Shown here in pieces: positions 4,205-42,641 of a DNA stretch of 52,138 bases (its first letter is position 1; each line of letters begins with the position of its first letter). The stretch covers positions 1 through 52,138 of the forward strand of contig JAPEUD010000110.1 of the NCBI GenBank assembly GCA_026026165.1, read 5' to 3'. Position numbers and translations under genes: made by a program. Origin of the DNA: Sarea resinae (taxonomy: Eukaryota). Under the pieces are notes generated by a model. It was given only the letters and a program-made list of their open reading frames with translations. It did not search any database and was not told the DNA's origin.

Positions 4205-5909
4205 ATGGCGAGAGCAATGCTGAGGACCGCTCAGCCGTGGTCATGTCGGGCCTCTGCCAATGGCCTTTCTCTGTTCAGCCCGATATCGTGCGTTGAGTCA
4301 AGGCTGCTGCATGGATGCCTTCTCTCAACCCTCAATGGGGCAATCAGTACCAACTGTTTGAAGGAGGGTCGAGGCCTGAGGTATTCCCATGGCTCGAGAA
4401 GTCCTCGGACGCTTTTCTTTTCATGGTGTGATCTCTCCGCTTTCTTCTTGGGGCTGGCTTGGCCTGGCCCGTGTGAAAATCAACCGTGCTGACTTGCAGA
4501 TAATGCTGCAGGAGGCAGACCCGGTCTTCGCGGTTAGGCTTGCTTCGTTGCGCTTCGTCTGTTCCGGGAGGAAACCCTGGCCCGGAGAAAGAGTGAGTGA
4601 TGATCTTTGCGGCTCGCACGATTCAAGAGCAATCCATTCCCTTGTTGAAAGTCCAATCGAGATTTGTGGCAGCAAGTTCGGCATCACGTGCCTCGTTCAA
4701 TTGGTGTTTTCTACTCCATGATCTTCCTCCTTGCTGTGCTTGTTCATTTTGCGCCAATGCGGTAGATGACGATGAGAGAGTTGTGGAATACACTGTAGTT
4801 GATTGACCAACCACTTCTAGACGCACCCCCAAAAAGCCTATCAAAGCAATCGCCTCTGTGCTTTCCTCACTCACCCCTCACGAGAACATCTATACGATCC
4901 CCAACATCCTCACTTTCTCACGATTACTCGCCGCTCCTGTGGTCGGCTACCTTGTGTTGCACGATCAGCATGCCTGGGCTGTCGGCCTCTTTGCCTACGC
5001 GGGGATCACTGATCTTGTTGACGGCTACATCGCCCGCAGATGGAAACTCCAGACTGTCGTTGGTACCGTTATCGATCCTATGGCGGACAAGATCTTGATG
5101 ACTATACTCACCGTCTGCTTGGCTGTCAAGGGAGCATTGCCCGGTATGTACCGCTTCTTTTTCCACGGTCCTCACATTATGTTATCGTCCTCTGTTTCCT
5201 CCATTCCTTCTTCGCGATCACAGCTTTTACCCGCTTCTCAACTTCAGGCCACGTGAAGTCTATGCTACACGTCTTTGAATCTGACACCACAATAGTCTGG
5301 CTCGCCCTTATAATACTCGGCCGCGATGCAGGCCTGGCCATATCAGCTGTCTACTACCGCTATATTTCACTACCCCCTCCAAAGACGTTTTCACGCTACT
5401 GGGACTTTTCCCTGCCCAGTGCCGAGGTTCATCCAACGACCATTTCAAAACTGAATACGGCTCTTCAGCTTGCCCTCATTGGTGTCACTACTGCCCAACC
5501 GCTGCTGATCGATTCCGCTGCTCTCGCCGCAGGCGATGGGGGGGCATTTGGGACGGGACTGATCGCTCTGCAGTAAGAATCCATCTTCCTTTCGCTCCTC
5601 GATCGTTTTTTACAATTGCCTTTGACTCTCGTTTCAATTTGCTGCTTCGCGCCAGCTGTCAACTTCAGCTCTTTTCGTTTGCGACAATCGTCCTACATAG
5701 CCAAAGATCGCCTTCTGTATAATCTTTTATCGAGCACCTTGCATAATTACAAGACAATAGCAGCTAAAAGCAATAGATACATCGTCGCAAGCACCACAGT
5801 CGCCAGCGGTGCCAGCTATGTCTTTTCCAAGGACGCCGTCAAAATCCTTACTACCGCCGAAGCCAACGAGGGCGCTGCAAAGAACAAATCGCCGAAAAGC
5901 TCGCGATGA
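4205..5909 (+). CDS. CRD1: Cardiolipin synthase (CDP-alcohol phosphatidyltransferase)
   Basis: ENIYTIPNILTFSRL, the CDP-alcohol motif DLVDGYIARR...GTVIDPMADK, and RYWDFSLPSAEVHPTTISKLNTALQ. Inferred exons 4205-4425, 4512-4592, 4821-5143, 5296-5572, 5777-5909, all GT-AG and in frame. The N-terminus resembles a mitochondrial presequence. Confidence 0.9.
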
Positions 5910-6462
5910 TGTTTTTTTACACAACGACAAGCAGACAGCATGGAGGATGTGGCATTTGGCATTTGGCATTTGGCATTTCTAGCACAGATGGGTATTCGCC
6001 CTGGAGTTTGTGACATGTGATACTCGATCTTCATCCCAAACCGAAGAGGGAAGAAGGGCTACTGAGATGAGTACTGCTGTATGGGGCCATCTTCCGTACA
6101 GCCAATGGTTGGTACACCTATAGTTATCTTATCTCAGCTGGTCAGCTCCCTGCTCTACTATCACGCATCTTACCTATTAGTCTCAGATCTTTCTGTGATG
6201 TTTAGCGGCCGTCTTAAAACAATGGAGACTCTTGATCATGCGACTTGCTTATGAGACTTTTTTCCAGCCAATGGCCGTTTTGCTGCTGGTTTCTCGACGC
6301 TTTCTAGGCTCACCTTGTCAATCAGGAGTGAGGAGCATGAATTGATTATGATATTGTTTGATCAAACTATAATGCCGACATCGTTATAGCTTAGAGATCT
6401 CGGAATTACACCCGAGAAGAACATGTACATTCAATATTGACGTTGAAGAGCACAAGCCTCCT

Positions 6463-7930
6463 TTACTGCTCTTCCCCAAACGGATAATTAAATTTTAACA
6501 GCCCGTTGAGGCCTCCAACCCAGCCATCATCGCCATTGGCTTCATGTCCCCCAGTGCCTCGCATGATACTCGGGACTCCGCCTTTCCATTGTCCGTCTGG
6601 GCGCTTGACCTCTTCGCCCCACACCCGGACTTCCATGCCGACGCCCACGCCCCTAGTCCGTCTGACGCCATCAATACTGACTTCGACCTCTCGACCACGG
6701 TTCTTTTCACTCAGCCGAAGCGTGACCTGGGTGTTTCCCGGGAGGACCAAAGGCCGGAAGCTCAGACTGCGCGGACAGATGGGCGTCAACAGCAAGGAAG
6801 ACACCAGCGGATGGACGATACTGCCCCCACTGCTTAGGCTGTACGCCGTACTTCCTGTCGGCGTGGAGATGATCATGCCATCTGCGACGGCTTCGGTCAG
6901 GAACCGGCCGCCGACAAAGACTTCGACGATCGCAAGGTGCGGCTCCTTTCCGCGATGGATGGAGATTTCGTTCATCGCGTAGATGTCGTTCTCGGAGGAG
7001 ACGGTGTTGTCGTCGCCGCTGATTCGTTCGCCGCGGGCGGAGAAGACGCCGACTTTCAGACGGTTCCGGAGTAAGACCCGAGCTCCTCGGCCGGGACCCA
7101 TTGATTTTCCCCGGAGAGATGACCAGTGGGTCGACGGGGGGGTCGCATTCCCCTGGTCAAGAGACGGCCGCTCTGGCTCCAGTAAGGAGCTGCCGTATCC
7201 CGCAGCGGCTCCGGACATATAAACTTCGCGGAAAGCGCGCTTGTATTCCTGAAATTTCCACTCTCCTAGGAATCCAAGAGTGCCCATACTAAAAGCCAAA
7301 ATGGGCGGTACGCTCGATGTAGAGGCGAAGAGGGAGGAGGCGTGAAGGATTGTCCCATCTCCTCCAAGCGTTGTAGTCAGATCGACCTTTTGCTGTACCT
7401 GCGCCATAGCGGTGTCCAGTGCAGCACCTGTGTTGTTCGCGCCAACCGCGTAGACGGGAAAAGGGAGTTCTTCATGAAGGTCGGAAGCCACATGGGATTC
7501 AAGAATGATGGACAACGATGGGTATGTAGTAGATATATGCCTGCTTTGCATATCAGCATTGCACCCCGAACTAGTAGGGTATTGCATACTTTGCGAATTC
7601 AATGACAGCATCTCTGACCGTGGGGACCCCCTCCTTCTTGACAATGAATATATTCCTCGGAGGGGCTGGCCATTGTAGAGAGAGTAGGTCGTTACTTTCA
7701 GTCTCTATGTCCCCGTTCCATCGGCATCAGTATCAATGATAGCGCAAGAGCTTCTTATGCAGATGCTTACCGTGGTATTTGGGCAATAGCCGATCCGGAA
7801 GCTCTGCGATGTCTCTGATCTCTCGCCTCGAGGCACTGCCGGAAAATGCTCGACTCCATCGCAGAGGAGCAACCCCAATAGTGGGCCAAGTAGAGAAGCA
7901 GGCTCTCTGCAGCCGACCTCCCACTATCAT
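6463..7930 (-). CDS. POS5: Mitochondrial NADH/NAD+ kinase
   Basis: TLGGDGTILH, FSMGTLGFL, MNE, DGMIISTPTGSTAYSLSSGG and PICPRSLSFRP motifs. Exons 7930-7771, 7704-7590, 7540-6463. Arg-rich presequence-like start. Confidence 0.92.
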
Positions 7931-8431: not shown

Positions 8432-10043
8432 ATGAGCGAGCTTCATCCAGCCCGCCATGGCAACCCTGCATTTGCTGCGGCCCCCGGCGGCGATGAAGAC
8501 GTCGATTCTGACGCTCGACAAAAAGAAGGCGTCCTCATTCGGCTGAAGACCAAAGAGGAGACTCGAGCGACTAATGAGACGGGTGAGAATGCGCCCTCGC
8601 GATTTGTGTCTCGTCACTGTAGAAAAGAAACATGCAATTGACAATTTTGTCTGTTCGCCAGTCGATTGCTACATACTCGATCTGCCCGCGAAGTTCGCAC
8701 ATGGCGTTTACAGGTACGGCTTTTGATTTCTTACAACGCGCATGAATTGATGATGACGACGACGCCGCAGCGCTCTTCGAACTGCCTTTCCAGATGATCG
8801 ATTCGACCTGCAGCATCTGAGACGATTCGCCAAACCAAGCTTCCTACCGCTTCATCTGAGACCTCTGTCATCTGTGCCGGCGAAACGATCGCATTCTCCC
8901 CATGAGACGTCCACGCCCAATGGAGCAGCCGAATCTGAAGCCGGACAGCCACTGCCAACAAGCCAGCAACCGCCCCTCCTGCATCTTCTTGTGGGGCCCG
9001 TAAAGAGCATTCCCCGGACGGGGCTGACCAACAAACTCATGAGCCTGGCCCCCTTCTCAGATGGATCCATGGCGATCAATCTCCGCACCGTGTCCGTGCC
9101 AGCCCTGGCGCCCACGGCCGAGGAGCAGGCCCAGCGCTGGAGTGAACAATACTGGCCCACTGTGTACAAAAAGACGAACCCATTCGGCCCGCAGCCGTCG
9201 GTCTGGGACCGCGCCGAGCGGGACATACTCCCAGGCGCTGGACGTTGGATGGCGCTAGCCGAGGCTGCGGGGCAGGCGGCCAAGCACGCGCGTACTGGTG
9301 AGCCCTTTGGCGCAGTCATCGTGGATAATACCCCGGACGGCCAAAACGCCGTTGCAGTGGCCGGCGACGCGCGATGGTGTGGCCCTGGGGCGGAACTGGC
9401 CAGCGGCAATGTCGCGGGCCATGCCGTGATGCGGGCGATTGGGATGGTGGCTCTGAAAGCCAAGCGCGCGAAGCAACAGGGTTCACGAAACGACCATGCC
9501 CAAACACCGCAATGCGGGAGCGATAGTCGCGAAGAAGGAGAAAAAGAACAAGAAGTCTCAAGGACTATCACCACCTCCTCAACGATCTTCCTCGACACCC
9601 CCCTGACCAGCCTCGAAGAGCGCTATTTCATGCTTCGCAACGTGTCCGATTCGGCGTATCTCTGCTGCGGGCAGGACATCTATCTCTCGCACGAGCCGTG
9701 TCTTATGTGCGCCATGGCAATCCTGCACTCGCGCTTTGAGCGCGTGGTTTTCGGGACCAGGATGCCGGGCACGGGCGGTCTGTGTGCTGATATGGTGGTA
9801 GGGGATGGTGGTGCTGATGGGGCCGATATGAAGACGGTGGATGGAGATAGAGATAGGGATGGGGATGCGAGAAAGGCGCACAGTCCAATACGAGGTCAAA
9901 GCCACCAAGGCCTAGGGCTAGGCTACGGACTCTTCTGGCTTCACGATCTTAATTGGAAGATGCTGGCCTGGCAGTGGCAGTGGCAGGATAGCGCGCGGCA
10001 TCCCGATTCCGTGACCGCAGGCAGTAAATTCCATAACGCCTGA
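8432..10043 (+). CDS. TAD3: tRNA-specific adenosine-34 deaminase, non-catalytic subunit
   Basis: DLQHLRRFAK, WSEQYWPTVY, GHAVMRAI (Val in place of the catalytic Glu), YLC..., HEPCLMCAMAILHSRF and LNW motifs. Exons 8432-8582, 8662-8713, 8771-10043. Confidence 0.9.
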
Positions 10044-11430
10044 GGATCTTGACGTTGTAAGGGTACGGGTCCTAAACAGGCTCTCGGACGGCTAAAGTAA
10101 TGGAGCGAAAAGATCTTCGTCATCCCGCATTTGGTCCAGTCACGTTGGCCGTCCGCCGTTGCTATATCAAGAACTTTGCTGATCACCTCTTATGAACAAT
10201 ATCTCCAGCACACGCATCTGTCTTCTGCTCTGTCGATCATTGTCTGTGAAATGGCTTATTCACGTAAATGTAGCAGAATAAGGTACAGAAAGAAGAACAG
10301 TCTTTGTGCTGGCGATGGCACTATGTCGCCTCAGAAGAAAGGGAAAGATATAAGAAAGGCATTGTTGATGCAACAGCAGGGTCAGTGGCAGCGCCATTAG
10401 CATTGCTGTAGAGAAACGCCTAAGACACCTCAGGCTTTGGATTTTAGAGGAAAGAGAGATAATAGATTATATAATATCCTTTACAAGCTTAAGAGGCTGT
10501 TTTACATGTAGCATTATACACTACCTAGAAGATTATATATCTAAGCACCTTTATATATATTAGTACTTATAGGTCTAGATTACTATCTTATTGCTTTCTA
10601 CCTCTTAACATCACCTTTCCTTCATCATATCACCCTCGCGCGAGCAGAGTGTAACTTCGTACGTCTCCCTCGACCCGCCATGCCTCTGTTTTAGACAGTG
10701 CTTTACATAGTTCTGTACCTCTGCCATTTGACAGATGGTCCTAGCCACGGCGTCAGAACTTAGCCCTGCTGATAGAGCCCTGATCCACGGTCTACTATGA
10801 GTAAGTGAACTGATCACTCTAATCCCCACGCGGGCTAGGCACCCTAAACTTTGGAGTGCCTGACCGTAGCATGAACAGAAATTTGGACTTAAGGGAGACC
10901 TTAGATACCATCCTTGAAAGTCACTCCACTTACATTCTACTATGGCACGCTACATAGGATTAGGCCTTGCACGCCAGCCGCGCAAGTCTTCTGATTCCCC
11001 TCCCTCCCGGTCGGCAGTGGCTTCATCTTGTTTTGCAGAGCACATACTGCAGAGATAATCTCCTTGTCGTTCTCAAATGGGACACGCTGCAGGAAAGAGA
11101 TAAGAGAACTCGGGCTGAGTCCCTGATCCCCTTCCGTCCTCGGCCAGCAAGCTCACTCTACCCGAATAAAGAGGCGGAGGAAAAACCCCGAACAAGAGCG
11201 ATATTCGATTGCAGAGTCTGACATCATCGCCCATCTAACAACTCGAGGCGTTGTCAAAAGACTCAAAAGACTCAAAGAGACTCCGGAGGAAAGTCTATCA
11301 ATTTCAATTGCATATTATCACAGCGTTCTTGCTTTTGACTGCGACCTCATTTCTTCAGCACTGAAGAGCTCTCTGCTTCGTCGTATATATTTGAGCGATC
11401 CGGCCCAGTGCCGGCATATATTTTTTCTAG

Positions 11431-24613: not shown

Positions 24614-26248
24614 GGTGAGCGCAAGACGCGCGCGCCAGACGGCAGTTCAAAGCGTAGGTGAATTCGAGAGTGCGTAGGTATGTCGAAGTGGGACGGATGG
24701 AGGTGTGGATTTTGTAATGCATTGTTTTGGCGAGACCGGAACTGAAGTCGATGCATCGGAAAATGCATCCTTGTAAATGTACGCCATTGCTTGTCGTCTT
24801 CATCAATGAAACTCTCAACCCACTCATTTCTAATGAACGAAGCAGACGGTCTGGTATTGATGACCTTAATCAAGTAGTTTCCGCTTCTGCGTCACTAGTT
24901 CCAGACCTGTGGCCCCAGATCGGAATCAGAAATCGCAGATGCGTAATTGGTGGCTTCAATTCCGCGCCGTGTGGGCCCTGCCTGCATATACAAATGATAT
25001 CCTCCATTGGCTTTCTGGCTTTCTGGCTTTCTAGCTTCCTAGCTTCCTAGCAATCGAAAATAAGCAACGTAGATACCAACCGATATGGAACGCATTGGAG
25101 CAGTTTCGCGCAGGTCGATTGATACAAATAGGCAGGACACCGCTCCTCAGCCCGTCATAATATTCAACTATGCGGGTTGAGTCAAAACTGTTCAGAGACA
25201 GATATTCAATCTACAGAACTGTTTCGTTGATTGTGAAAATATTCACAAAGTCACATACTTTGCTTGCTACAGAGCCGATAACACAGGAATTTTCTTCGAC
25301 TTGCCTTTGTTGCCTTTGGTATGATATCCCCGCGAAAGCCTAGTAGGCTGCACCAATGTCCTTACTACTCACTTACAAGCGCATCAATCACGCTCAAGTC
25401 GAAGACTATACTGCCTACCTTTCTACAGCATCGGCTAGAAACCACGGTCTCTAGAAGATCTAGACAGGTGTAGCTAGCTACTTTGTTCAGCCCGAACTCT
25501 ATATTTTATCCAGTCTATACTCAGCATTCTACTCTATGTCGTATCTCACGAGCTGTTGAAGGGTCTTGGAGAACGACTAAAGCACGAGAGAGAGCGAGAG
25601 GAAGAAGAAGGTAGGCATATAAAGAAAATAATTTCTCTCTCTCCCTTTTTCTCCCTTTAAACTCACTGTACCCAAAAGTCGCTGGCTTAAGACCGTTCGA
25701 TCTTTTTGGGTTAATAATGATGATATTAGACCCCCTTCTGAATCCAGTCTCTGATATCTCGATCTGGAGATGCTGTCACTTATAAACTTTCCTGCTGATT
25801 TCGCGTCCCTTCTTGCTCAGGTCTCAGTCTCTGGGAATCAAATTCCACTGTCATACACTTTTGAGGGTTGTATCGCGACTGGCCCGAGTAGGAGTCGTCA
25901 AACGTGTACTTGGGTGGGGCATCGTAGAGGAAAGGCGGTGCGACGCCCGTGATTGATTGCGATCGATCACTAGTGCTCGAAAGTTGAACGAAGGGATGCT
26001 GCTAAACGCTCGACACGAGGGAAGCAGAATTTAGAAGGCCACGACGATGAAAAAATTGTGGAGCGAATGGTAAAGGCAGTGAAATAGGTGTGGAGGTGCA
26101 ATTGATTGGCAAACAGATAATTGCCCTAGCAACAGATACTAAACGACTTATCTGATCGGATTTGGCGAATTCGTCGTCATCAGATCTTCATGCATCTGAT
26201 ACCTGGCATTCACATTTCTCGGTCTCAGTCTCTCTGCGCGCGCATATC

Positions 26249-28062
26249 ATGAATTTCTCTCGAGCCTCACCCTTCATCTGCAATAGATGCATAGGCATAT
26301 TGCAGCGAGGTGTAGGCAGGCGCCAGCAAGCGCTCCAAGGAGCACAGCCCCGGTGCTTCTCCAGCGGTCCGATACTGCAGCAGGGCGGACATGGACGGTC
26401 ATTCCGCGTGGCCGTCATCGGCTCAGGCCCTGCCGGCTTCTACTCGGCATATAAGTTGATGTCGAAGATGGAAGATGCGGTGGTGGATATGTATGAGCAT
26501 CTGCCCGTACCATACGGTCTGGTGCGCTTTGGTGTTGCTCCAGACCATCCCGAGGTCAAGGTGCGCATATCGTGACTCGATGCAATGCCGAGGCCTCTTT
26601 TGTGACACATGAGCCATCGCAGAACTGCCAGGACAAATTCAACGAAGTAGCTTCTTCCTCCCGCTTCAACTTCATCGGGAACATCTCCGTGGGCACAGAT
26701 CTGCCCCTCGCCTCTCTCCGACCCCACTACGACGCCTTTCTTTTCGCCTACGGCGCATCGCAAGATCGCGAGCTCGGCATCCCCGGTGAAACGAACCAAA
26801 GCGTCTACTCGGCGCGTGCATTCGTAGGTTGGTACAATGGACTTCCCGAATATGCGTCCTTGGACCCTACTTTTGACCTCACATCTCGTGGCGAGGACGC
26901 CGTCCTAATCGGCCAAGGCAATGTGGCACTCGATATTGCGCGCCTGCTGTTGACGGACATCGATGTCCTCCGGAAGACAGATATCACCGAACAGGCGCTG
27001 GACGTGCTATCAAAGAGCCGGATTAAACGAGTCACTATCGTTGGCCGCAGAGGCCCAATGCAGGTCTGTTTCTCTTCTCATATCCTCTCTCGATTCTATA
27101 CTTATACCGTCCGACAGGCCGCCTTCACGATAAAAGAAGTCCGTGAACTCATGAGCCTCCCCTCCGTTGCCTTCGAACCCATTACCCCCTCCCTCCTCCC
27201 ACCGGCCGGCACATCCCTTCCCCGTCCGCAAAAGCGCCTCCTCCAACTTCTCCAAAAGCAACCCTCAATCCCCGACCCCGACGCCTCAAAATCCTGGTCC
27301 CTCCGCTTCCTCTTGTCGCCCCTCGCCTTTCAAACCACCCCCACGTCCTCACCATCCCACGCCGACGAACTCACCTCCATCCTCTTCGCGCAAAACGCTC
27401 TACCCCAAGACGCACCCTTCTCCCCCAACGCCCGCGTCACGCCGACAGACACAACAACCACCCTGCCAGCAAGCATCGCCTTCCGCTCAATCGGCTACAA
27501 ATCCGCCCCCTTACCAGGATTCTCGGACCTCAACATCCCCTTCGACGCCCGCACTGGCATCATCCCTAACGACCTCCACGGCCGCGTCCTCGCCACCACT
27601 GCCACCACGTCCTCCTCCTCTTCTTCTTCTTCGGAGATACCAGGGTCCCTGGCCGCGAGACACGTGCCCGGCATCTACTGCGCCGGCTGGGTCAAACGCG
27701 GCCCCACGGGCGTCATCGCCAGCACCATGGACGACGCCTTCAACACGGCGTCCGTGATAGCCTCCGACTGGGCCTCTCGCGCCCTCTTCCTCAACGGCCC
27801 CGGGCGTGGCGTCTCCAACCCCGCCACCGGTGCCACCACCACCACTACGGACAGCAACAACATCAGCAGCAGCAATAGCGAAGGCAGCACTGGCCTCGGC
27901 TGGGACGGCGTCAAGGCCGAGGCCGACAAGTTGGGATTGAGGCGAGTCAGCTGGGCGGACTGGCAGCGCATCGATGCGGCCGAGAGGCAGCGGGGCAGGG
28001 AGCGCGGCAAGGAGAGGGAGAAGTTTGCCTCTGTGACAGACATGCTTGCTGTTTTGGACTAG
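26249..28062 (+). CDS. ARH1: Mitochondrial NADPH:adrenodoxin (ferredoxin) oxidoreductase
   Basis: VAVIGSGPAGFY, PYGLVRFGVAPDHPEVK, SARAFVGWYNG, IGQGNVALD, VGRRGP, RSIGY and GWVKRGPTGVI. Exons 26249-26560, 26623-27063, 27118-28062. Confidence 0.95.
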
Positions 28063-28659: not shown

Positions 28660-29198
28660 GCTTTTACCAAGGCCTGCAGGTTGCTCCGATCGACTCAGGG
28701 CTATTCATCTACACATGCAAAATAATCAAAGCATGAGGTTGTGACATGAACAAGTCATACAAGAGACTGCCCTTGGACGAAGTATTGTTTTGGCATTTTC
28801 TGCAATGATATCATGCAGTCCTGTCAGTCATAAGTCAGCATTTGAGATGAGGAATGCACGTGCGAGTATGAGTTGACATCGGAAAGCCCGAGAGAGGCAT
28901 ACTAAGTATTGCTTCGTATTGCTTGCCCGTCATTGGAATCCATGTGAATGAATTCCATGAATGGATTCCATGGATAGCGGGCTTGGTACGCTCTGAGACG
29001 AGTCACGATTGAGTGATGGCTTTACACGAGGACTTACTGCGTACTGCGTGCTACTACGTAGTACTTCAGTAGACGTTCAGGCGATTGAATCGCTTTGTCA
29101 GATATATACATAGTACGGAGTAGATGTCGATTGCAAAACGATCAGATAGTAAAGTTCGCTAATGGAAGGCCTGCGATACAGTACCCCGTACATCTTTC

Positions 29199-29207
29199 TG
29201 GGATTCG
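29199..29207 (+). repeat. Left target-site duplication TGGGATTCG (9 bp)
   Basis: The identical 9-mer directly follows the right TIR at 37361-37369. Confidence 0.93.
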
Positions 29208-29228
29208 TTACCTCAGCAGGCTCAGACC
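29208..29228 (+). repeat. Left terminal inverted repeat TTACCTCAGCAGGCTCAGACC
   Basis: The reverse complement of 37340-37360 is TTACCTCAGCATGCTCAGACC (one mismatch). Confidence 0.93.
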
Positions 29229-29724
29229 ATAGATCACGTGGACCTGGATTAACATCCGGCCCGTTCGGATGAATGACTAATCATTCCCAAAAGGGAAATC
29301 CACGAGATTATAGTCTGAGGCAGATTTACTAACTTTGTATAGACTGAGCGCGAGTTATTAACGCGTTGCAGATATTTAACTCAGTATATCTCTGCAATTA
29401 TATCTGCAAGTATCTTTAAAACCTAATCACCTATAAAGAATATATAAGGCTATGTAATAGTCTGTTTTACATCTTATAAGGATTATTAGTTTAGGATATC
29501 TTATGCCTTAAAGTTAAAAACGTGTTAGTAAGAGCGAGCAGCTTTAATTCTAGCAGATATGCTAATTTGTGACTGCTACAGCAATATCTGCTATATACCT
29601 GCAGCGAATGATTTCTGATACACTCTAGGTCAATTATAAGCGCCTGTAAGGGCTGTTTTTATCTGTGCTACACCTGCATAACCACCTTGCTATTAACTAT
29701 ATCTGCTGTTGTTGCTTAGGTTAG

Positions 29725-32470
29725 ATGCCGCTAAAGAAACACACCTGTAGAGAGTTATATAACTGCAAGGTAGATAAAGAGATAGAGCAATAACAGCGCG
29801 ATAGAATAGCCTATAATAGACTGTTAACAGACAAAGAGCGTTAAATATAGAAGCTGTAAGATAATATTAGGAAGTAGGCAACTCCTTGCTAAGCATACTA
29901 AGCAGCGTTTAGGCCTATAAACCTTAGAGGTTTGTTAGTTTAGGAGTTCAGCACAAACAGCCCTCTTTTGTTCGACTATTTAAGAGTTTAGCACGAACAG
30001 CCCTCTTTTGTCTAGCTGTTTAGCCTTTAGAGCACTATATATGTCCTATCTCTATAGAGTAGCTAGTAGAGTAGTTGCTAATGCTATCCTATCACAAATC
30101 ATTGTTTGTACTCTATTTGTGAGTTTGTAGATTTGTACAAACCTTGCGCATATCCTTTGCATACACGAACTAAGTTAGCCTAGCCACTCACAGATAACAT
30201 TTAACAGCTCTATAATGCAGATAAAGAGGAACAACAAGAGGCTATTAACGCTATTATCTGCGCGATATATCTATATAGCAGACAGCTAGGGCAGCTGATA
30301 GCACTCTGCTAGTTGCTATATACTAAGCAAGACTTATTCCTTATCGCTAAGACCTTGTTTAGAAAGAGCATAATAATGCAGTCGCTCTTGTGCCTAGTCT
30401 GCAGGGCTATAGTTCTTGTTATCCTTCTGTTAAATAAGATTAGTAAAGAGCAGACTGCGCAGATAAGAGGACTCACTAGTATAAAGCCTGTTTATATAAC
30501 AGGAGATAATAACAACTATCTGCTGCTTAAGGCTATCTGTATAGGCGAATATACCTATATCCTAATGTTGTTAGAACTAGCTGTCAGCCTAAAATTAGAG
30601 CGGATATAGAAGGATGTTAGACTACAGGCGCAGATATCGCTAGTAGTCTTAGATAAGGTGCATCTAGTGTCAAATTAGTCCTTCTTCTGCTGTTCTTATG
30701 CTAGTCTTAGCATACTGCGCAGATTACTCAGAACTAAGCCCTGGTTCGCCTGCACTGCAACGCTAGATAATAATACGTTCGCAGATGTACGCTGACTTAC
30801 AGGCTTTAGAGAAGATATTAAGGTTGTCTGCACTTCTATTAATTGTCTAGAACTAGCAATCGTCTGAGAATATATACGCAGAGGCAATAAGCGATCGTTT
30901 AATTGCCTCTACTTTATTATTAAAGGCTGCAGCGCTAGTATTAGGGATACTCTATTGTCTGCCGCAGATGTAACGTCTAGGACTAGCAGACTAGACGCTA
31001 TAGCATCAGCTGCGCTTAGTCTAGACTGTTTAGCATTAGGTCAATGTGCTAGTCAGTATTACTAGAATGATTGTCTAACTCTGCAGCGGATAACAAAGAC
31101 AGTTGTCTTTATAAACAGCAAGCGATTGCTAAAGGAAGCTTATGACAAGGTGCGCAGATAGTTGCAAGAGCGCAGATATCTAGCGCGGCTAGCAATGCAG
31201 ACTATTAGAGTATACTATGCTACGCTTGCAACAAACGACAAGGAGCAGATATAGCATGAATTTTCAGAACAACTGTCTAGGATCTAGGTATTGTTCTGCT
31301 CTAATGCAGTTGCATAAGGAGCAGATATCGCAGATATTAAGCGTGTTATCCACTTTAGTCTGTTCTGCAACCGCCTTACAAGCCTAGTCTAGCAACGTTT
31401 TAGTCGTGCAGCACGCGGCAGCAGTTAGAAGAGTGAGGCAATACTGCTTGTTAATGACTAGTGTAAGGGTCTAAAGGTGCAGACAAACCTTAGGGGTATT
31501 AGCAAGACTAACAGTTAGCAGCAGATCAGGGCTACTACAGCGCAGACACTTGTTTCCTTATCCTAGTCAAGTTAGCTAAGTTAAGAATACAATTGCAGAG
31601 ATAGTAAGGATTCTAACAATATAAGTAATGTCTCTATCTCTGCCTTAATCGCACTGCTAGACAAAGCAGACAGTCAACTACAGACTATATAAGAATTGAC
31701 TCTAGGAGGATTGTGTGTAGCCTTACCCGCTGAATTAAGGCCTTGTCCTGCGGATTTAAGGCCTAGAAGCGTGTATAAACAGAGAGCAGACCTTCTATAT
31801 CTGCTATATAACTTTGCGAACAAGGAAAAGGCTTGCCTGCAGCAGATATTCCTACAGACCTTTAACAAAGACTTAGCAGATAATAGCACTAAAGAGCTTG
31901 TTCCTAGCAGACGCTGCTGTTCGAACTGCAATCCAGAACTTTAGCTGTCTAAAAGGCCTAACTTTAGACTATTTAGCAGTGATATGCTGCGGTTAAAGAA
32001 CAACAAGCACTTAATCAGCCAGATTAAGCAATAGATATTAGACTAGGCGCAGACGAAATACAGCGATATGATTTAGATCCTAGTCCTAGGATATGTGATT
32101 TCGTCTGATGTTGTTTAGCAGATATGCAATTAGAAGCATAGTATCTACAACGCAGAAACGCTGCTTTGCTATGCAGAATAGGATAGAGGAGACTTTAATA
32201 AGGCTGATCTAGACTTATTAGCAGCGTTTATCTGCGCAGATAGTTAGGTTCTGCGTTTATATAGGGATGCACTAATTATAGCTAATTCTCCTTTGTTACT
32301 AACGCTACTAGAGTTAAATCAACTGTCTAACTAGCTGCTAACAGCCACTAATTATCGCTGTAAATCAATGACTATTAACAAGTTAGTGTTAGATAGGGCA
32401 CTAAAGAGACAGCAGCTATTAGCTCCTATTAATATAAATAGAAATATCTGCAGCGAACAAAGGAAGTAAA
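29725..32470 (+). pseudogene. RecQ-like superfamily-2 DEAH helicase of the transposon, RIP-degraded (ends approximate)
   Basis: One frame retains AKTLFRKS (~AKTSFGKS, motif I), LLNKISKEQ (Ia), LDKVHLVSN* (~DEVH..W, II), FACTATLD (III), CSNAVA*GADIADIKRVIHF (V), *QRFSRAARG (~WQRFGRAAR, VI) and CLQQIF...CCSNC (RecQ Zn site). Many TAA/TAG stops. Probable intron at 29930-30130. Confidence 0.88.
29941..30020 (+). repeat. 40-bp tandem duplication inside the element (putative helicase intron)
   Basis: Two copies of ...GAGTTYAGCACRAACAGCCCTCTTTTGT..., differing by transitions. Confidence 0.8.
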
Positions 32471-32544
32471 CAAAGGCAGACTAAATAGCAGTGAATATCT
32501 ACAGCGAACAAAGAAGGTAAACAAAGGCAGACTAAATAACAGTG
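32443..32544 (+). repeat. 51-bp tandem duplication inside the element
   Basis: AATATCTRCAGCGAACAAAGRARGTAAACAAAGGCAGACTAAATARCAGTG x2, differing only by G/A. Confidence 0.85.
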
Positions 32545-32774
32545 AATGTAAAGCTATTCGCTTGTATAGCTGCATTAGTTAGCAGCACACCTTTGTATTC
32601 GACCTCTTTGTTTGTCTTATAACCTACCTAACTATAACATCCTTATTAACATCCTTATTAACATTATTAGCATCATTATTATCAACATCATTAGTATTAT
32701 CATTATTAACATCATTACTACCCTTATTAACAGCCTATTAGCAGCGATTATATCAGCGTTAAACAGCTACTAAG

Positions 32775-34115
32775 ATGCTACCTAGTGAAGCAGACAATAA
32801 TAAATTGAACTAGTACGTTAAGGCTGTGATTAAGGAGAGGGCTAGAGCACTAGGACCCTTGTAGGCTATAGCCTAAGGTTATTATCTAAGACAACAACTA
32901 ATGTAATAATAGCAGAGAGATAGTTAAGACAAATAAGACAGTAAGAGTAGCAGCAAATGTTAGCAGACTACTATTATTACTTCTAGTATGTTGATCTGCC
33001 CTATAAATAACTTAGTTAGCTGCAGCTAATAAGACAGCTGTATTTCGGCTGCTAAGAGATAGAGGCAGCAGAAGAGGTGGCTGCCTACAATAAGAACCTG
33101 CGTTTAGATAATCTAGCAAGCGTTAAGAACATAGCTGCTCCTCCTAGTGATACTGTACTGTCTATGCCGCGTAGCCTGCTATCTCTGCTGTCTGATAAAC
33201 TATCTTTGCTGCAGTCACTAATGTCTCTACAGTCTCTACTGCCTTAGACGCTGTCTCTGCTGCTCTAGACACTCTCTCTACTAGCTTAGCTAGCTTAACT
33301 AGCTTAGACACTCTCTCTAGATAGTCTACCACTAAGCTAGTCTACTTTTTAGGATAGTATATAGGACGTCTGCTGTCTGATTTAGCCTAACTAGCTAGCC
33401 CCTAATCTAGCTGTGTAGGATAGCCTTTTAGAGACTCGCTAAAAGGTATATGCTTACGCTAATCTTATTGTGAATGATCTGTACTAGGGCGTTTCACTTA
33501 CTAGGAAATGCGAAAGGTGCGTTAATAAAGGCATTCTATGCATAATCTATTAGAGTAGGCTAAAAAGGCAGATAGTAAAGCTAGAGGACAACTGTGTAGA
33601 GTGCTGTGTAGCAGGCAAACTGTGCCGCTATAATGCAGACGCAGACAATAATGACAAAGACAATAATGCGCAGCCTGTAAGCAGATTAGCAGTGCAGATA
33701 TCAAACATCACTAACCCTGTATTAGGAGCAACCTCCTCTGCAGCAAGTGACACGTTGATTGGCTAAACAAGCAAATAATAATTAAGACAATAGTCTACTG
33801 CAAAAGAAGGTATAACAGATCTATCTGCACTTATTAGGCATAAGCTGACGTAGTATATAGAGCTGTAAGAAGGACAGTTAAAAGCCTGTTAAGGAGAGCG
33901 ATGTCACTAAGCAAGCACCTGTACAGCCTACTGCAACGCCTTTAACAAATATCTGCACTAGCAGCGAATCAATCATGCTATCTGCACTAGGACAAGGTGC
34001 TATAGAACAGCGGGTTACAGACCTAGGCGCAGAAGTGACCTACCTTAGGGCAGAAGTGGCGCAGGTATCTAGAAATATCCTTAAGATATTAGCTATTATC
34101 TGCTGTAGGGCCTAG
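32775..34115 (+). pseudogene. Third transposon gene: Zn(II)2Cys6-like motif plus C-terminal coiled coil, RIP-degraded (ends approximate)
   Basis: 33509-33625 reads CERCVNKGILC-x17-CVECCVAGKLC (C-x2-C-x6-C-x17-C-x2-C-x6-C, one internal stop). ~34000-34100 reads IEQRVTDLGAEVTYLRAEVAQVSRNILKILAII (heptad-like). Candidate introns at ~33446-33487 and ~33745-33793. Confidence 0.55.
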
Positions 34116-34189
34116 TAGTTAGCTTAGTAGTTAGTTTATTAGCGTGTTAGTGCTGTCACGCGTTTTCTAGTATTAAATTGAGTCTTTTA

Positions 34190-37111
34190 CCTGCGAACAT
34201 AATATCACAGAGTGATAATATTAGAACATTACACTATAGAATATCTGCTATACTCTAGCTGCACACGCTACATATCCTACGCCTAATAAGATGTTAATAT
34301 AACTGTATATTAATAGCAGATATACAAGTAAATGCTTATGTCTAAGCCTACTAAGGCTTGCACTATATCCTCCTTAATATCTCTAACAACTTAGTCGCCT
34401 AGTTCTATATATCTGTTGTTAAACAAAGGTAATCCTCTGCGCGCTAATTGATTAACGCCTAACTGCAGTAGACTAGGTGCAACATACATAGATAAGCGAT
34501 CTTAGCGGCAGATAATTGAATCTTAAGCGATTAGATTAGCAAGACTTTTAATATCTTCTGCAGCAGACCTGTCTAGATAAGATACATTGATCTGCTTGCT
34601 AAACGAGAATTCAAACTAAGCCTGTAGCAGAGCAAGATAGCTGCTTATTAACACTGACTATTTGAACAGCGCTGTTACATTAAATGTTGAGTTGCCTTTT
34701 GTCTGCAAAAGAGTCTTTAGCTTAAGGTTTAGGAGTTTGTTTAATTGATCGACCTTAAAGAAGGCGTCTAATCTAGTATAGTTGCTGATAAGACTGTTTG
34801 CAAGGATCGCCTGCTGCAGATATCGATCACAGATAGGAGTAGATATTAGCCGCTAAAGACAAATCATTTCTCACAAGTAGTTATGCGATAAACTCCTACT
34901 GAAATATAGACAGCTACAAGCAATAACGCGGTAGAGCAACCTAATATCTGCGCGTTTAATAGCATGCCTTAACGTTATATATGTCTTAATGTAGTGTAAG
35001 AAGCAGATATAATTAGAATACTCTAAATCATGCAGCAAACGCTGTTTATAAGAGCTTCGCTTTTGATTAGGCGCTGAAGAAGCTATATCTGCTAGGTCCT
35101 TGCTTGTTTTGTACTAGGCTAGTTCCTAATAGGCGGTAGTAGAAAAGACTCTTTAGCAGATATCCTCTACCTGTCAAAGAAAATCTGCAGGACTTAGTTA
35201 GCAGATATATTTAGCTATCTAACCTTTATGCCTGTTCTTAAATCTAGCAGGCAAATCCGATATAAATAGAGCAACGATCTGCGCCTAAAAGCTATACTAG
35301 ACTAGTTCTTGCTAGTAGTAGAATAGCGCTTTATCTGCAGGTATATTCTGACAGCTAAGGAAGTTAATATGCGAATAGAGGGTTAAGTATTGCTAGATAT
35401 TACTCTCTCTACTATAATGTAACCTAACAATTAATGCTAAAAGGTTTATCTGCAAGTAGAAGAGACTAGGCACTAGTAATGCCTAGGCGAGGCGATTGTA
35501 GGCATCTGCTGCCTCTACCTACTCAATTTAGTAAGAGCAGATAAGGCTTGCTGTTTTCTAATCTCTAAATATTAAGACTAACTGTTTCTTAAAGTTAACT
35601 GTATCTTAGCTGAGCTAGCAGACAAATATGTTGTCAAGCACATTATATGTGCCTGAAATAGAACCCTTACTCTTAGTGATTAGTCCTAGTGTAAGATGCT
35701 CTGTCTGCAAGGGCAGAAGAACATTAACGCATAGTATCTGCAGGAATTAAACACTATCCGCTGCAAATATAGCCTCTATCTGTTCTAGAAACGCTGCGCA
35801 GATAGAACTAGCAATAAAGTGAGTCAATATCTTAGTCTGTGTCTTATCTATAAAATTCCTGTCTGCCTTAAGTAGATCTATTACCTCTATACAGATATCT
35901 AGATAGTATATGTCTTAAGTAAGTAGTCTATTTAGCAAGCATTGTCTGTGCAGTAGCTTTCTAGTCGTGTATAAACGAAAATCTCTGGTATTACCTACAG
36001 TCTAGTGTTGCACTCTTTGTTGCCACTTAAAGTTATTGTAGACCACTATGAAATCCTATGTCTGCGCTGTAGAGGAGATATTTGCCTTGTTTTAGTTAGC
36101 TAGGTCTGCTAAATAGAAGGCGTTAATATCACGTTCCTTGCTCTGCTCTAATATCTGCAGCTTCTGCATATTAATTGTGCGATATCTGTCTATAAGTCTA
36201 AGGCTATGCAGCACGCTTAACGCTTAGCAGGTCAGCCCTATATCCTTTAAATATAGTCCTAACAGGCGCGCGAAACAGTTTATAGAAGTCCTTAAACAGC
36301 TAAGGCTTAGTATTAATATAGTCATAACTATTTAGCCTTTATCTGCTAGGGTTCTCTGCTAATACACAGTGCTAGACTGTTTTACCTCTGCTGCACTACA
36401 GATAAGACATGTAAGCATAGGCGCTATCCGCTTAATAGTGTCTGCAGTGCTAGAGATATTAAGCTCCTTAAAACCTAGGTCCTTATTGTATTGCCTAAAC
36501 AACAGACATTCGCCTTGCAGCCTGTCTAGCTTATTGCAGATAAGAGTAATAGCGCTGTTAACAACTGCAGCTTAGCCTTTGTCTGCACTAATCAGAAGTG
36601 TATAAAGACCCTTATAACTAAGGATAAGGTTAAAAAGGTCTTCTCTTCTCTTTATCTGCTGCTACTTGTTACATTCTACAGTGCTCTCTAGCTAGAGTTG
36701 TATAAAGTAGATAGGCGTTATCTGCTATTCCTATAGTTGCCTTAGGATACCTTAGACCTTTTCCTCTAGGCTTAAACGCTTAGTTGTATTAGGAGATAAA
36801 GTAGAAGGAGAAGATAACAGTAGCAGATCAGATATCTTAGGCGATAAACGCGAATATAATAGTAGATATACAGGCAAATCAGATAACTTAGGCGTTAAAA
36901 GCAAATCTAAAGACAATAATAGCGAATCAGGCACCTTAAGCAGTGATAGCAGATGTATTAATAACAGTAGTGATAGTGGCGAATTGAGATTAGGCTATAA
37001 CTGCGGTGCAGATAGTAGAGTTTGCAGTCTCTAAGGTGTATCTGCAGCAGATAAAGCCTTTGTCCTGCAGCGCTTCCTGCTAGTTCTAGAAAAAGGAGCA
37101 GATGCTGACAT
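34190..37111 (-). pseudogene. Academ-type DDE transposase (DUF6589-like), RIP-degraded (3' end approximate)
   Basis: A single frame from ATG 37111 contains VVYNNFKW (~YDNFEW, ~36040), IFRD*KT (~GDQKT, ~35560), RLA*ALLVPSLFYLQIN (~WALPVPGLFHLQMN, ~35470) and ANSLISNYTRLDAFFKVDQLNKLLN (~N..G...F.D..E..N, ~34770). All revert by C>T/G>A back-mutation. Confidence 0.82.
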
Positions 37112-37339
37112 TCTAATCGAATATAGAGCAGATCTAGACCTTTCTTTTCAGCCTCTTTTCATTACAGACAGCGTTGTGGTTGCGGATATCTTATGGTTTG
37201 AAGTTGATAATAATCGCCTCTATACAAATGACCCGCTCAGCCCATACAAAGTCGGTCAAAAGTGCCTCAGACCTCTGGCTGGTCAATTGCCTAGTTAGGC
37301 AATAGTGGTCCGTGCTTAGCGGACCACGTGACCGAGCGA

Positions 37340-37360
37340 GGTCTGAGCATGCTGAGGTAA
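37340..37360 (-). repeat. Right terminal inverted repeat
   Basis: GGTCTGAGCATGCTGAGGTAA, the inverted match to 29208-29228. Confidence 0.93.
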
Positions 37361-37369
37361 TGGGATTCG
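37361..37369 (+). repeat. Right target-site duplication TGGGATTCG
   Basis: Identical to 29199-29207. Confidence 0.93.
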
Positions 37370-37641: not shown

Positions 37642-38466
37642 ATGTCCGTCTCCTCAACAGCAGGAGAGACAGCGTACCAAGCTCGCTCACTTGTGAGTAT
37701 TACCCGCGGTTGTGGCGTGCGTTGCGGCGCAGTTGCCACGCCGTTTACCTGCCAGCCCATCGGCCTTCTATGTTTCTCGCCATCAAAGCTTGATGCCAAG
37801 TACTGATCCGCCGAGCGCTAGTACCGTTCACTTCTGAGACAGTCACGGCAATTTGCTGCATACAACTTTCGGGAATATGCGAAGCGAAGGACCAGAGATT
37901 CTTTCCGAGAACACCGAGAGGAAAAGGACGAGAGGCGGATACAGGAGCTGATCCAGAAGGGTTTGAAGGAGTTACAGGTGCTCAAGGTTTGTGATGATGT
38001 TCTTTCGTGCCCCTTGAAAGGCTTGGAACTTTCCGGCGTGTATCTGGGTTTACAGAGGATGCCTGCCATATGCCGCCTAAGAACGGGGCAATTGTCTGGG
38101 CTGGCCTCTTGAGGAAAGCCTTTCAGAGAGCAGAACAGAACTAGTAATGGGCAGCGCTGGGAGCATGCTAATTTTGATAACAGAGGCAGACTGTTGTCAG
38201 TCAATTCTTCCAGCTCGATAGATTAGTCGTTGAGGGGCAAAAAACGGTTAGTCTCACATGTTCACCCATTGTAGGGTGTCAACTTCATTACCATCGGAGA
38301 TAAAATCGATCACTGACACGTGCGAATTCAGGGCAAGCAAACAGGAGAAGACGGAGGCATAGTGAGACAGAAAGATACCGGGTAAGCCTGGCAATGGCCA
38401 ACTCTCCGTCTACCCTGACGTTTGAATTCAACGATGGCTCGCTAACTTCTCGCTAGATGGGATTGA
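37642..38466 (+). CDS. ISD11: LYR-motif protein 4 / Isd11 (Nfs1 partner, mitochondrial Fe-S assembly); missed by the ORF track
   Basis: Exons 37642-37692, 37822-37986, 38184-38246, 38332-38381, 38457-38466 give [48 protein letters not shown]...[23 protein letters not shown]...DTGWD*. Confidence 0.93.
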
Positions 38467-39936: not shown

Positions 39937-41220
39937 TCACGGAGCCGGATGTCGAACCCGGTCCTCATAGGCCCTCCAGCCCTCGACGCGATACCTCTCT
40001 GCCTCGGCGGCCCTGTCATCGGCGCCTAGAATGCCCCGGCCGACGATGATGACATCGCAGCCCTCGTCGAGGATGACCTTGCGGGGCGTCCGGTACTGCT
40101 GGCCGAGGCCATCGCCGCTCTGGGCCTCGCCATGGCTGTCCGCGGGCGGCAACGACACGCCAGGGGTCAGGACGAGGAAGTTGTCGTCCGGCAGCGAGTT
40201 GAGGTCCTGTTGGGCGATGAAGCCCAGCACGAAGTTGCGGTGGTCGCGCGCCATGCGCACGCACGTCGACGTGTAGTCGCCCGTCAGCAGGTTGCCGGCC
40301 GAGGACATCTGGGCGAGCAGGAGCAGGCCGCGCGCGAAGGGCGGATCGCCCAGAGCGGTGAGCGCGGCAGCTGTTTGGGCCGGCGTCGAGGGCTCCGCGT
40401 GCAGCAGGGGCGCCAGCTGGGTCGACGAGGCGGATGCCGACGGCGGCGGCGACGTCGTGTGATCGGTGCGCGATTCGATCGTCGTCGCCCGCACAATGCT
40501 GCCTTTTCGCGACGACGGGGAGCTCGTTGACGCTTGCAGGTTGGGATTCGAATCTTTGACATCGTCGCTGGATTGCGCGAGCGCGCTGCCGTCGTCGGGG
40601 TGGCTAAAGGACAATGACGATGACGAGCTGCTTGGCCGTGGCGATCCCGTGCTTATTTCCGTGCTGACCGATGCATTGATGCTGGATACAGCCGACACGG
40701 CGGCCGAGTGCAATGCTTCGACGATGGCCGGCCCAGGGAAGATGTGCGCATTGGTTATAGCGGCCCAGCGGACAATGGACAGGGGGCCCGAGGTGTATTG
40801 TTTCTGGACGGTGCCTGTTGTTGCGATTGTTTAATCAGTCGTCTTGTTCGGTTGATAGAGAATACAATTCTTGAATTAGAGAAAGGAGAAGAGAGACATA
40901 CTGCCAATGTCCCCGAATTTGCGATCCTCGAATACAAGAAATCTTTTCCTTCGCGCAATGTCACGTAGGCCTCTGACCGTGCGCTCGCCAAAGTCGTCGA
41001 TGATATCGGCGTGCGTCTTGAGCATGCATATCGAGTCGCCCACTTCTTCCGCCAGCTGGAGCAGGCCCGAGGTGGTGGTCACGTCGGCCGAGAGACATAG
41101 ATTCGTCCGCTTGATGGTGATCAGTTGCAGGAGGAAGGAGGCGAGCGGATGGGTGTTGGGGAGGGCGGCCCGGGCGAGGTAGGTTTGTGTTCGGGTTGGT
41201 GACGGAGACGGGGTGGCCAT
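39937..41220 (-). CDS. URA3: Orotidine-5'-phosphate decarboxylase (long-insert fungal type)
   Basis: TNLCLSADV, MLKTHADII, FEDRKFGDIG|STVQKQYT, RGLLLLAQMSSAGNL, TPGV, GDGLGQQYRTP and DVIIVGRGI. Exons 41220-40902 and 40814-39937. Confidence 0.95.
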
Positions 41221-41222
41221 CT

Positions 41223-41262
41223 TGGTGGTGGTGGTGGTGGTGGTGGTGGTCGTCGTCGTCGT
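41223..41262. repeat. (GTG)n/(GTC)n microsatellite directly upstream of the URA3 start
   Basis: Direct inspection. Confidence 0.85.
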
Positions 41263-42641
41263 GTGTTCGTTTGCGCGCACTTGAGCTGGCACTGGAGTGG
41301 CCGAAGGGAATCAATTCAGTATTTGAGTGAAGCTGTGAGCTCGACTGGGTGAGATGCCAAAGATGGAGGACGGGGATCCGACCGGGATTCGGCAATGGGA
41401 ATGAGAATGACAGTGACAATGGCAATGACAGTGAGAATGGGAAGAATCATGGGATTGGGAGTGGGATGGGCTCCTCGGTCGTCAATCTGGCTGGATTTGG
41501 TGTTTCGTGTGGGGTATCTTCTTCTTCGTCGTCTCCCAGTCCCGCTTTTCCGTTTTCTGTTTTCTCGCCTTGGTCGCTGCAGCACGACGACTACATCCTC
41601 GGTACGCAACTGCGTATACTGCGTATACTGCGTATGCTTGCTCCCGTAGGATACTCTAGTCCGTAAGCCTCAAATCTCCATGAACATCCATGGATCCATC
41701 ATGCCCCTATCTTCGGTGACAACTTGGAAGCTCCCTGCTCCCTGCGCCTCACGGTCACGGCCCCCGATCTTGAGGCGGTTCACGACGCCCTACTCCGGAC
41801 ACGCCCCATCGACGATGGGCGCCCCCATCGGCTTCGGCACAGGCAAAAGACGAATCCCATCCAACGCCCACCGTCCCTAGTCGCGGCGATCCTGCGCCTA
41901 CCGCTGTAGCGCCAGCTCGCCTCTGCATTTACCCAGCCGTCCGCCGTCAGCCGTCAGCCGTCAGCCAGCGAGCTTCATAGCACCCATCCATGGATATAGA
42001 GTGGATATCACCCAATGCCGCCATGACTAAGGGCTTTGTACGCAGTACTCTAACACACGTCGGCGGTGACGCGATGTAACGTAGCCATCCCCTTCCATTG
42101 GTATCCCCTACCCGCCCTCTACCGCCGTCGAGTACGCGGTACTCCGGAGTATCCTCCGTACTGCATAGCCCACGCAACTTCCTGGCGGGCTCGCGACGTC
42201 GCCTCGAAACGAAACACCATGTACCACGATCACGACCATCGCATCCGTCACGACGGTCACGACTCTCACGACTATGACGACCATCTCGCCCATGGTATCA
42301 GAGGCAGAGGGGGAAGTCAGGCCGGTATCTCATCAGCATCAGCCTTCTCAGAAGGTCTGCATGCAGAGTGCAGAATGCAGAATGCAGAATGCAGATTGCA
42401 GAATGCTCGACTCCCTACGGTGAGTAGACCGCCTTCGCCAAACCTCCCCGAATAGTCCAAGCGGCTCAGGTCCCACCTCGGTGCCTGCTGCCCCACCAAA
42501 AAATTCACTTTCGCTGGAGTAAGATGATATCGATGCCAAACCCGCTGCTGTGATTCGCACTCATGCTCAGTGCTTGATCGAGTCTCGACAGAGTCACCAT
42601 CTCCCCTTTGCCGGTCTCTTTCCCCTCCCGCAGCCCGAGCC

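Follow-up and report, generated by a model that had tools for sequence, protein, structure and literature searches.

A RIP-decayed, helicase-bearing DNA transposon of probable AcademH-like type in Sarea resinae

What is the AT-rich island that interrupts an otherwise gene-dense contig of the fungus Sarea resinae? The window analysed here is a stretch of 52,138 nucleotides (contig JAPEUD010000110.1 of the metagenome-assembled genome GCA_026026165.1), and the island, at positions 29208-37360, is an AT-rich element of 8153 bp. An initial annotation had described it as a complete, helicase-encoding DNA transposon related to AcademH and silenced by repeat-induced point mutation (RIP). Kojima is said to have defined AcademH in 2020 as the helicase-encoding lineage of Academ. 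Based on its ends, its two genes and its relatives, we consider it very probable that the element is one of several copies of a helicase-carrying (AcademH-like) member of the Academ superfamily of cut-and-paste DNA transposons. Its parts, including the terminal inverted repeats (TIRs) and the target site duplication (TSD), are the following:

29199-29207, no strand: left TSD, TGGGATTCG, an exact match to the right copy
29208-29228, plus strand: left TIR, TTACCTCAGCAGGCTCAGACC, 21 bp with two CTCAG units; the two TIRs form an inverted-repeat pair (95%)
29234-29241, plus strand: left subterminal motif, TCACGTGG, with a CACGTG core, mirrored at the right end; read from the sequence
29830-32625, plus strand: pseudogene of a RecQ-like superfamily 2 (SF2) helicase; outer limits extrapolated from an intact relative of 835 amino acids (aa)
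32443-32743, no strand: tandem repeats (51 nt twice and 12 nt about ten times) in the 1.7-kb spacer between the convergent gene ends
34330-37162, minus strand: pseudogene of a probable Academ-type DDE transposase with a Pfam DUF6589 core, convergent to the helicase
37324-37331, minus strand: right subterminal motif, TCACGTGG; read from the sequence
37340-37360, minus strand: right TIR, reading GGTCTGAGCATGCTGAGGTAA into TGGGATTCG, complementary to the left TIR at 20 of 21 positions
37361-37369, no strand: right TSD, TGGGATTCG, an exact match to the left copy

The block with its 21-bp TIRs and exact 9-bp TSD, as first described, was recovered as a structurally complete TIR transposon and proved to be unique in the window. 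Among 4171 pairs of exact 9-mer repeats lying 200-15000 bp apart, only one encloses an inward-facing inverted repeat matching at 17 or more of 21 positions, and this pair is the element's own TSD (20/21). When the window was resampled 40 times with a first-order Markov model, the best inward inverted repeat reached 14/21 and no comparable TIR/TSD arrangement was produced. The element begins and ends as 5'-TTACC...GGTAA-3'; the function of the subterminal TCACGTGG can only be inferred. The guanine-cytosine (GC) content of the element is 0.39 versus 0.53-0.56 in the flanks, and the bins form a sharp island, with 0.36-0.42 over 29001-37000 against 0.45-0.65 elsewhere in the window. Because this shift in composition coincides with the TIRs and TSD, it counts against the view that the block was never mobile. 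A blastn search (word size 9, E<=1) of the rest of the 52-kb window detected no second copy or fragment.

The element encodes two recognisable genes. When all six frames of the element were scanned against Pfam over its full length, with stop codons read as X, the only matches were DUF6589 (E=4.3e-33) and a helicase (Helicase_C, E=2.9e-9), so that the three proteins counted in the initial annotation were reduced to two; the spacer between the genes gave no Pfam match in any frame. With intact relatives as queries, tblastn produced a single match to the transposase at 36502-34436, in one frame, and located helicase homology at 30217-31470 and 31912-31974, again in one frame. No frameshifts were found in the alignments of either gene. 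Stops are numerous, with 52 in 1054 codons of the transposase and 27 in the 701 codons of 30106-32208 within the helicase. The proposed arrangement of a plus-strand RecQ-like helicase facing a minus-strand DDE transposase, both riddled with stops yet each preserved in a single frame, was thus borne out.

An exhaustive HMMER scan using the stop-masked translation of the transposase detected 444 proteins at E<=1e-3, 33 of them at E<=1e-30, the best at 6e-90 with 35% identity. Named DUF6589 relatives come from Sclerophora amabilis, Microthyrium microscopicum and Dactylonectria macrodidyma, and the DUF6589 Atlas clusters are most often basidiomycete. The family alignment conserves YDNF, GDQKT, WxLPVPGLFHLRMN and E.DR.NE.LN, and the window copy retains a remnant of each: YNNF for YDNF (codon 36037-36035), RDX for GDQ (D at 35563-35561), LFY for LFH (35458-35456) and D..NK for D..NE (34750-34736).

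We also considered the fold of the family through an AlphaFold (AF2) model of one relative, P0006 (pLDDT, the predicted local confidence, 72; pTM, the predicted template modelling score, 0.72). The model shows an RNase H-like fold that a long helical insertion interrupts ahead of the catalytic E, with YDNF on beta1, GDQ after beta4 and D..xE on the last helix. In a structural search with VIA-align the P element transposase ranked highest (Z 10.2, 362 residues aligned), followed by Hermes (8.6) and Tn5 (8.0), and then by retroviral integrase cores at about Z 7 and RAG1 at Z 6.1. Foldseek with the whole 834-aa model gave mostly meaningless matches to helical ABC transporters, with template modelling (TM) scores of about 0.07; only 6p5a was a high-probability match (0.97). 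On the strength of this predicted structure, the minus-strand gene belongs to a family of DDE transposases.

For the helicase, the domains named in the initial annotation were found in part. Helicase_C was clear in the helicase translation (E=4e-10), as was DUF6589 in the transposase, whereas DEAD (0.099) and RecQ_Zn_bind were weak in the window copy; the latter (E=0.026; 15.7 bits against a Pfam cut-off of 25) arises from a CxxC-type motif, CCSNCNP. Pfam scans of the helicase gave no match to HRDC or RQC. A remnant of Walker A, AKTLFRKS, lies at 30346-30369 and the DEAH remnant reads DKVH (30652-30663). A word-seeded protein search with the RIP-damaged helicase found one relative. The intact 835-aa helicase of a related metagenome locus (L003, described below) is far more legible, matching DEAD at 1.5e-14 and Helicase_C at 4.7e-14; its best solved relatives are RecQ (2.6e-28) and then RECQ5, WRN and BLM (to 1e-18), most of the match falls within residues 130-350 of the 835, the first RecA lobe.

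Is the transposase of the Academ superfamily? To compare the two we used the Academ RNase H hidden Markov model (HMM; RNase_H_Academ, 465 positions) from the supplement of Muszewska et al. 2017 (PMC5751038), taking 43 positions in four blocks. In the portion of that model consulted, the blocks read f-D-N-w-D at 2-6, t-g-d-q-p at 189-193, w-l-v-p-f-l-g-f-f-H-i-e-k at 214-226 and D-e-a-l-E at 450-454, with no strong signal at positions 152-177 (PMC5751038). The motifs of the DUF6589 family are the same four, in the same order and at similar spacing: from the first to the second D the distance is 188 in the profile and 158 in the family, and from the second D to the H it is 32 and 35. The 43 positions were then used as log-odds blocks and the best colinear chain was sought, a partial and home-made scoring under which 59 of the 69 family members of at least 560 aa reached 30 bits or more (median 41.3). 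The same threshold was reached by 0 of 120 unrelated adrenodoxin-reductase proteins (maximum 19.7), 11 of 207 shuffled family sequences and 4 of 69 reversed ones. Of the eight members for which placements were shown, most had blocks A-C (DNxD, GDQ and WxxPxxGxFH) on their aligned motifs, P0010 being an exception.

Two further properties accord with AcademH, namely the additional helicase encoded by the element and the 9-bp TSD. In the part of PMC10045372 available to us, a later paper by the author of AcademH, AcademH elements have a helicase and TSDs of 9-10 bp and AcademX elements have TSDs of 3-4 bp. The AcademH reading of the initial annotation is therefore supported by sequence motifs, helicase and TSD, with the named AcademH families compared by description only.

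Both genes are dead as judged from their sequence: stops occur by the dozen, and catalytic residues have been altered (D to N, E to K, H to Y). The proposal that RIP silenced the element agrees with its dinucleotide composition, since TpA/ApT rises from 0.63 in either flank to 1.51 in the element, and the composite RIP index from about -0.6 to +0.44. It also agrees with the direction of change. At the 39 alignment columns where at least 70% of relatives agree and the window copy differs, 25 differences are explicable by C>T/G>A alone and one by the reverse; among the changes are D>N, E>K, G>R, H>Y, P>L, Q>stop and W>stop. The decay is RIP-like: C>T/G>A transitions without indels could have produced nearly all the changes, which is the trace that RIP leaves in a repeated sequence. 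Two other bins of the window, 3001-4000 and 10001-11000, have TpA/ApT of 1.21 and 1.09 at GC of 0.43 and 0.46; they show no similarity to the element and may be small RIP-affected or AT-rich patches.

The element is multi-copy in sequence data that may come from its own source. One sequencing run, here called X1, is the only public run with the region (share 0.66), and two other runs of the same study contain next to none of its words. In the independently assembled contigs of run X1, summed depth is about 2000-7200 over the element versus 353-368 in the flanks; depth summed over contigs is not copy number, and "several copies" is as far as it goes. We placed 1579 run X1 pieces on the element, of which 965 were at least 99% identical to it and 614 were 95-99% identical. 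At the 77 places where the kind of difference between copies was classified, transitions account for every one (17 A>G, 20 C>T, 19 G>A, 21 T>C), so that excess TpA, C>T/G>A direction and a multi-copy state with transition-only differences, the marks of a RIP-mutated repeat, are found together.

The contigs of run X1 also bear on the boundaries. The left-flank contig stops at 29237 and the right-flank contig starts at 37331, both 30 nt inside the element; an overrun of 30 nt is the behaviour of a k=31 graph at a repeat edge, from which we infer that the repeat boundaries lie at the TIR tips. None of the joints in the run X1 contigs bridged the entire element. The sole indel among the differences listed for the copies is a 333-bp skip in three contigs, which join 29858 to 30192 (29859-30191 gone), and therefore some copies are without that stretch. 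The skipped stretch and a 40-nt tandem duplication (29939-30018) overlap. In one contig the element can be followed as far as 29305, after which the sequence matches 37287-37306 with two transitions; this junction to the right end (about 37280-37360) suggests a short, internally deleted copy resembling a miniature inverted-repeat transposable element (MITE) in the same sample.

The same kind of element was found well beyond this contig. A scan of metagenome contigs with an alignment of five relatives confirmed 239 hits, and 80 loci from among them were retained. In 38 of the 80 the transposase is followed downstream by a helicase homolog on the other strand, an arrangement found in 27 of the 34 with at least 2.5 kb of downstream sequence; in one locus only, L051, the helicase is upstream instead. 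Ends were recognisable on both sides in 14 loci, and all of these start TTACCT[C/T]AG...CTCAGAC, as does the window element. The terminus of the family can thus be written TTACCTCAG-N3-4-CTCAGAC, common to the window element and the 14 related loci. In L003 and L011-L013 a CACGTG or CACATG lies 25-35 nt inside the ends and resembles the subterminal motif of the window. The expectation that other copies would have the same TIRs and 9-bp TSDs held for the ends in these 14 loci and for an exact 9-bp TSD in four of them (L048, L053, L062 and L072), and it failed for the TSD in five. Imperfect TSDs were found in L069 (8/9) and L068 (7/9), and the flanks of L025 and L043 were too short for the comparison.

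Two groups among these loci deserve description. L003 (409-6599) is an apparently intact 6.2-kb relative in which the 835-aa helicase frame is open and the transposase is near-complete, in two open pieces (576-1421 and 1620-3215) that are possibly separated by an intron. Its first 35 nt are almost identical to the left end of the window element, including ACCATAGAT(T)CACGTG. L048 (9126-21185), together with L053, L062, L068, L069 and L072, represents a related family of 11-12 kb with the same termini and 9-bp TSDs, having 6.4-7.4 kb between transposase and helicase. In L048 there is no open reading frame (ORF) of 120 aa or more, and the additional 6-7 kb of DNA gave no Pfam match in six frames beyond the helicase; this copy looks degraded like the window element.

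Several observations weigh against our interpretation, in addition to the caution already attached to summed depth. The Academ link rests on 43 of 465 profile positions. Block D (D..xE) had weak scores and the chain search frequently assigned it to another position, and the RIP-damaged translation of the window copy scored 23.3 bits, within the range of the shuffled controls. The flanks of L003 carry an exact repeat of 8 bp, not 9, and a TSD is absent from L004, L011, L012, L013 and L024, that is, from 5 of the 12 loci with both ends and some flank; these TSD-less loci are short contigs of repeated elements and may be chimeric assemblies. The RIP substrate index, 1.06, is only borderline, and run X1 is possibly the window's own source sample.

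One alternative is that the family is a separate, unnamed DDE superfamily, sharing with Academ only motifs generic to the DDE neighbourhood and having gained its helicase and 9-bp TSDs independently. The small compared fraction of the profile and the weak E-block leave room for this, Pfam still lists the core as a domain of unknown function, and the nearest solved folds (P element and Hermes) are diagnostic of no single superfamily. We nevertheless judge it unlikely, because a helicase with a 9-10 bp TSD is the AcademH hallmark given in the accessible text of PMC10045372. Moreover, the match of DNxD, GDQ and WxxPxxGxFH in order and spacing sets the family apart from the controls. A Mutator-like (MULE/MuDR-type) element that had captured a host RecQ-like helicase would be compatible with the TIRs and the 9-bp TSD, as MULEs also produce TSDs of 9-10 bp. 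It is nonetheless very unlikely, since neither a MULE nor any other transposase Pfam family was matched at E<=0.1 in the four intact relatives P0006, P0010, P0092 and P0124 or in the six frames of the element, DUF6589 being the only transposase-related hit; the helicase is a conserved partner across the related loci rather than a one-off capture, and the motifs fit the Academ profile.

The fungal host and the RecQ-like helicase would equally suit KolobokH, a fungal Kolobok lineage with a RecQ helicase, to which we assign a very small probability. Kolobok elements duplicate the 4-bp TTAA, and the window TSD is 9 bp. As described in an excerpt of PMC9587614, KolobokH is confined to fungi and has a helicase positioned downstream of its transposase domain, and Kolobok has a C/DxxH motif. 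The window helicase is by contrast a separate convergent gene on the opposite strand, so that the gene order does not agree, and the DUF6589 family has G/A/S-x-x-H in place of C/DxxH. Finally, the block might never have been mobile, and could instead be a pair of decayed host genes within an AT-rich isochore, or else a chimera produced during assembly. Only the AT-richness and the origin of the window from a metagenome-assembled genome speak for this, and we find it scarcely credible given the precise TIRs and TSD with their coincident composition shift, the flank contigs of run X1 that enter each end by 30 nt around a multi-copy interior, and the recurrence of the same ends and gene pair in many other contigs.

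An AcademH-like transposon remains our preferred interpretation, and it can be compared with known systems. With AcademH the window element shares TIRs, a TSD of 9 bp, a DDE transposase with Academ-profile motifs and an SF2 helicase encoded by a gene of its own; the family further has the TTACCTCAG-N3-4-CTCAGAC terminus, the subterminal CACGTG and the convergent genes, traits that described AcademH families may or may not share, and the host of the window element is Sarea resinae. AcademX, the XPG nuclease lineage, belongs by profile motifs to the same transposase superfamily, but has TSDs of 3-4 bp and a nuclease, as far as the consulted part of PMC10045372 describes it, where the window element has a helicase; no XPG domain was found in the six-frame Pfam scan of the element. 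KolobokH is likewise a fungal DNA transposon with a RecQ helicase, on the evidence of the excerpt of PMC9587614, and differs in its C/DxxH DDE superfamily. The P element (6p5a) and Hermes/hAT (8edg) are the closest solved folds, RNase H-like with a large helical insertion, but show about 10% identity, no common Pfam family, and other TSD lengths and partner proteins, such that the resemblance is one of fold only. Members of the RecQ family (bacterial RecQ, RECQ5, WRN and BLM) are the best match of the intact helicase, whereas the helicase of the window family is transposon-borne.

By this reading, the transposase of an active element would bind the CTCAG-containing ends and then excise the element, and integration would proceed through a 9-bp staggered cut. 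The helicase may assist as an accessory protein, unwinding or remodelling DNA while the element transposes.

In the window, the element inserted with an adrenodoxin-reductase-like gene on one side and a small LYR-type gene on the other, and 9 bp of target were duplicated. The neighbouring genes are of ordinary housekeeping type; the region is gene-dense, and the element occupies the space between two of its genes:

26156-28062, plus strand: adrenodoxin-reductase-like gene
37822-38112, plus strand: gene which, from its ORF translation, we take to encode a small LYR-motif protein
39937-41310, minus strand: presumably an orotidine-5'-phosphate decarboxylase-like gene, from its ORF translation
42528 onward, plus strand: gene assumed from its ORF translation to be GARS-like

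How new is the family? The initial annotation had suggested that a complete AcademH element of the Pezizomycotina might be uncharacterised. This was not supported, as the part of PMC10799480 seen by us already records AcademH in Ascomycota, at low copy there and in Basidiomycota and Mucoromycota. Similarly, Table 1 of PMC5751038, as far as it was available, gives Academ as low-copy in most fungal taxa. Our literature search found no published link of DUF6589 or PF20231 to Academ and turned up one relevant DUF6589 preprint. The kind of element is thus already known in fungi, while this family, its ends and the equation of DUF6589 with Academ may be uncatalogued. A broader proposition can be put forward tentatively, although as a whole it is rather doubtful: that DUF6589 is the Academ catalytic core, and that the TTACCTCAG...CTCAGAC elements with convergent genes and 9-bp TSDs form a widespread, uncatalogued AcademH clade of soil- and lichen-associated fungi, some of them intact and possibly active (L003), with MITE-like derivatives.

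Looking beyond this contig, if DUF6589 is the Academ core, many fungal "hypothetical proteins" could be labelled as transposon genes. The accessible portion of the preprint (bioRxiv 10.1101/2025.10.24.684071) reports DUF6589 as enriched in stripe-rust haplotypes and speculates that it is a virulence factor or an epigenetic regulator; under the same condition, this enrichment would more likely reflect transposon load than virulence. With the ends, internal CTCAG repeats, subterminal CACGTG and 9-bp TSD defined on several independent copies, non-autonomous derivatives should be findable. For the genome of Sarea resinae, the element is an ordinary RIP-inactivated intergenic transposon, to be masked as a repeat and not annotated as two genes. 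Its apparently intact relatives from soil metagenomes would provide material for testing the role of a RecQ-like helicase in cut-and-paste transposition.

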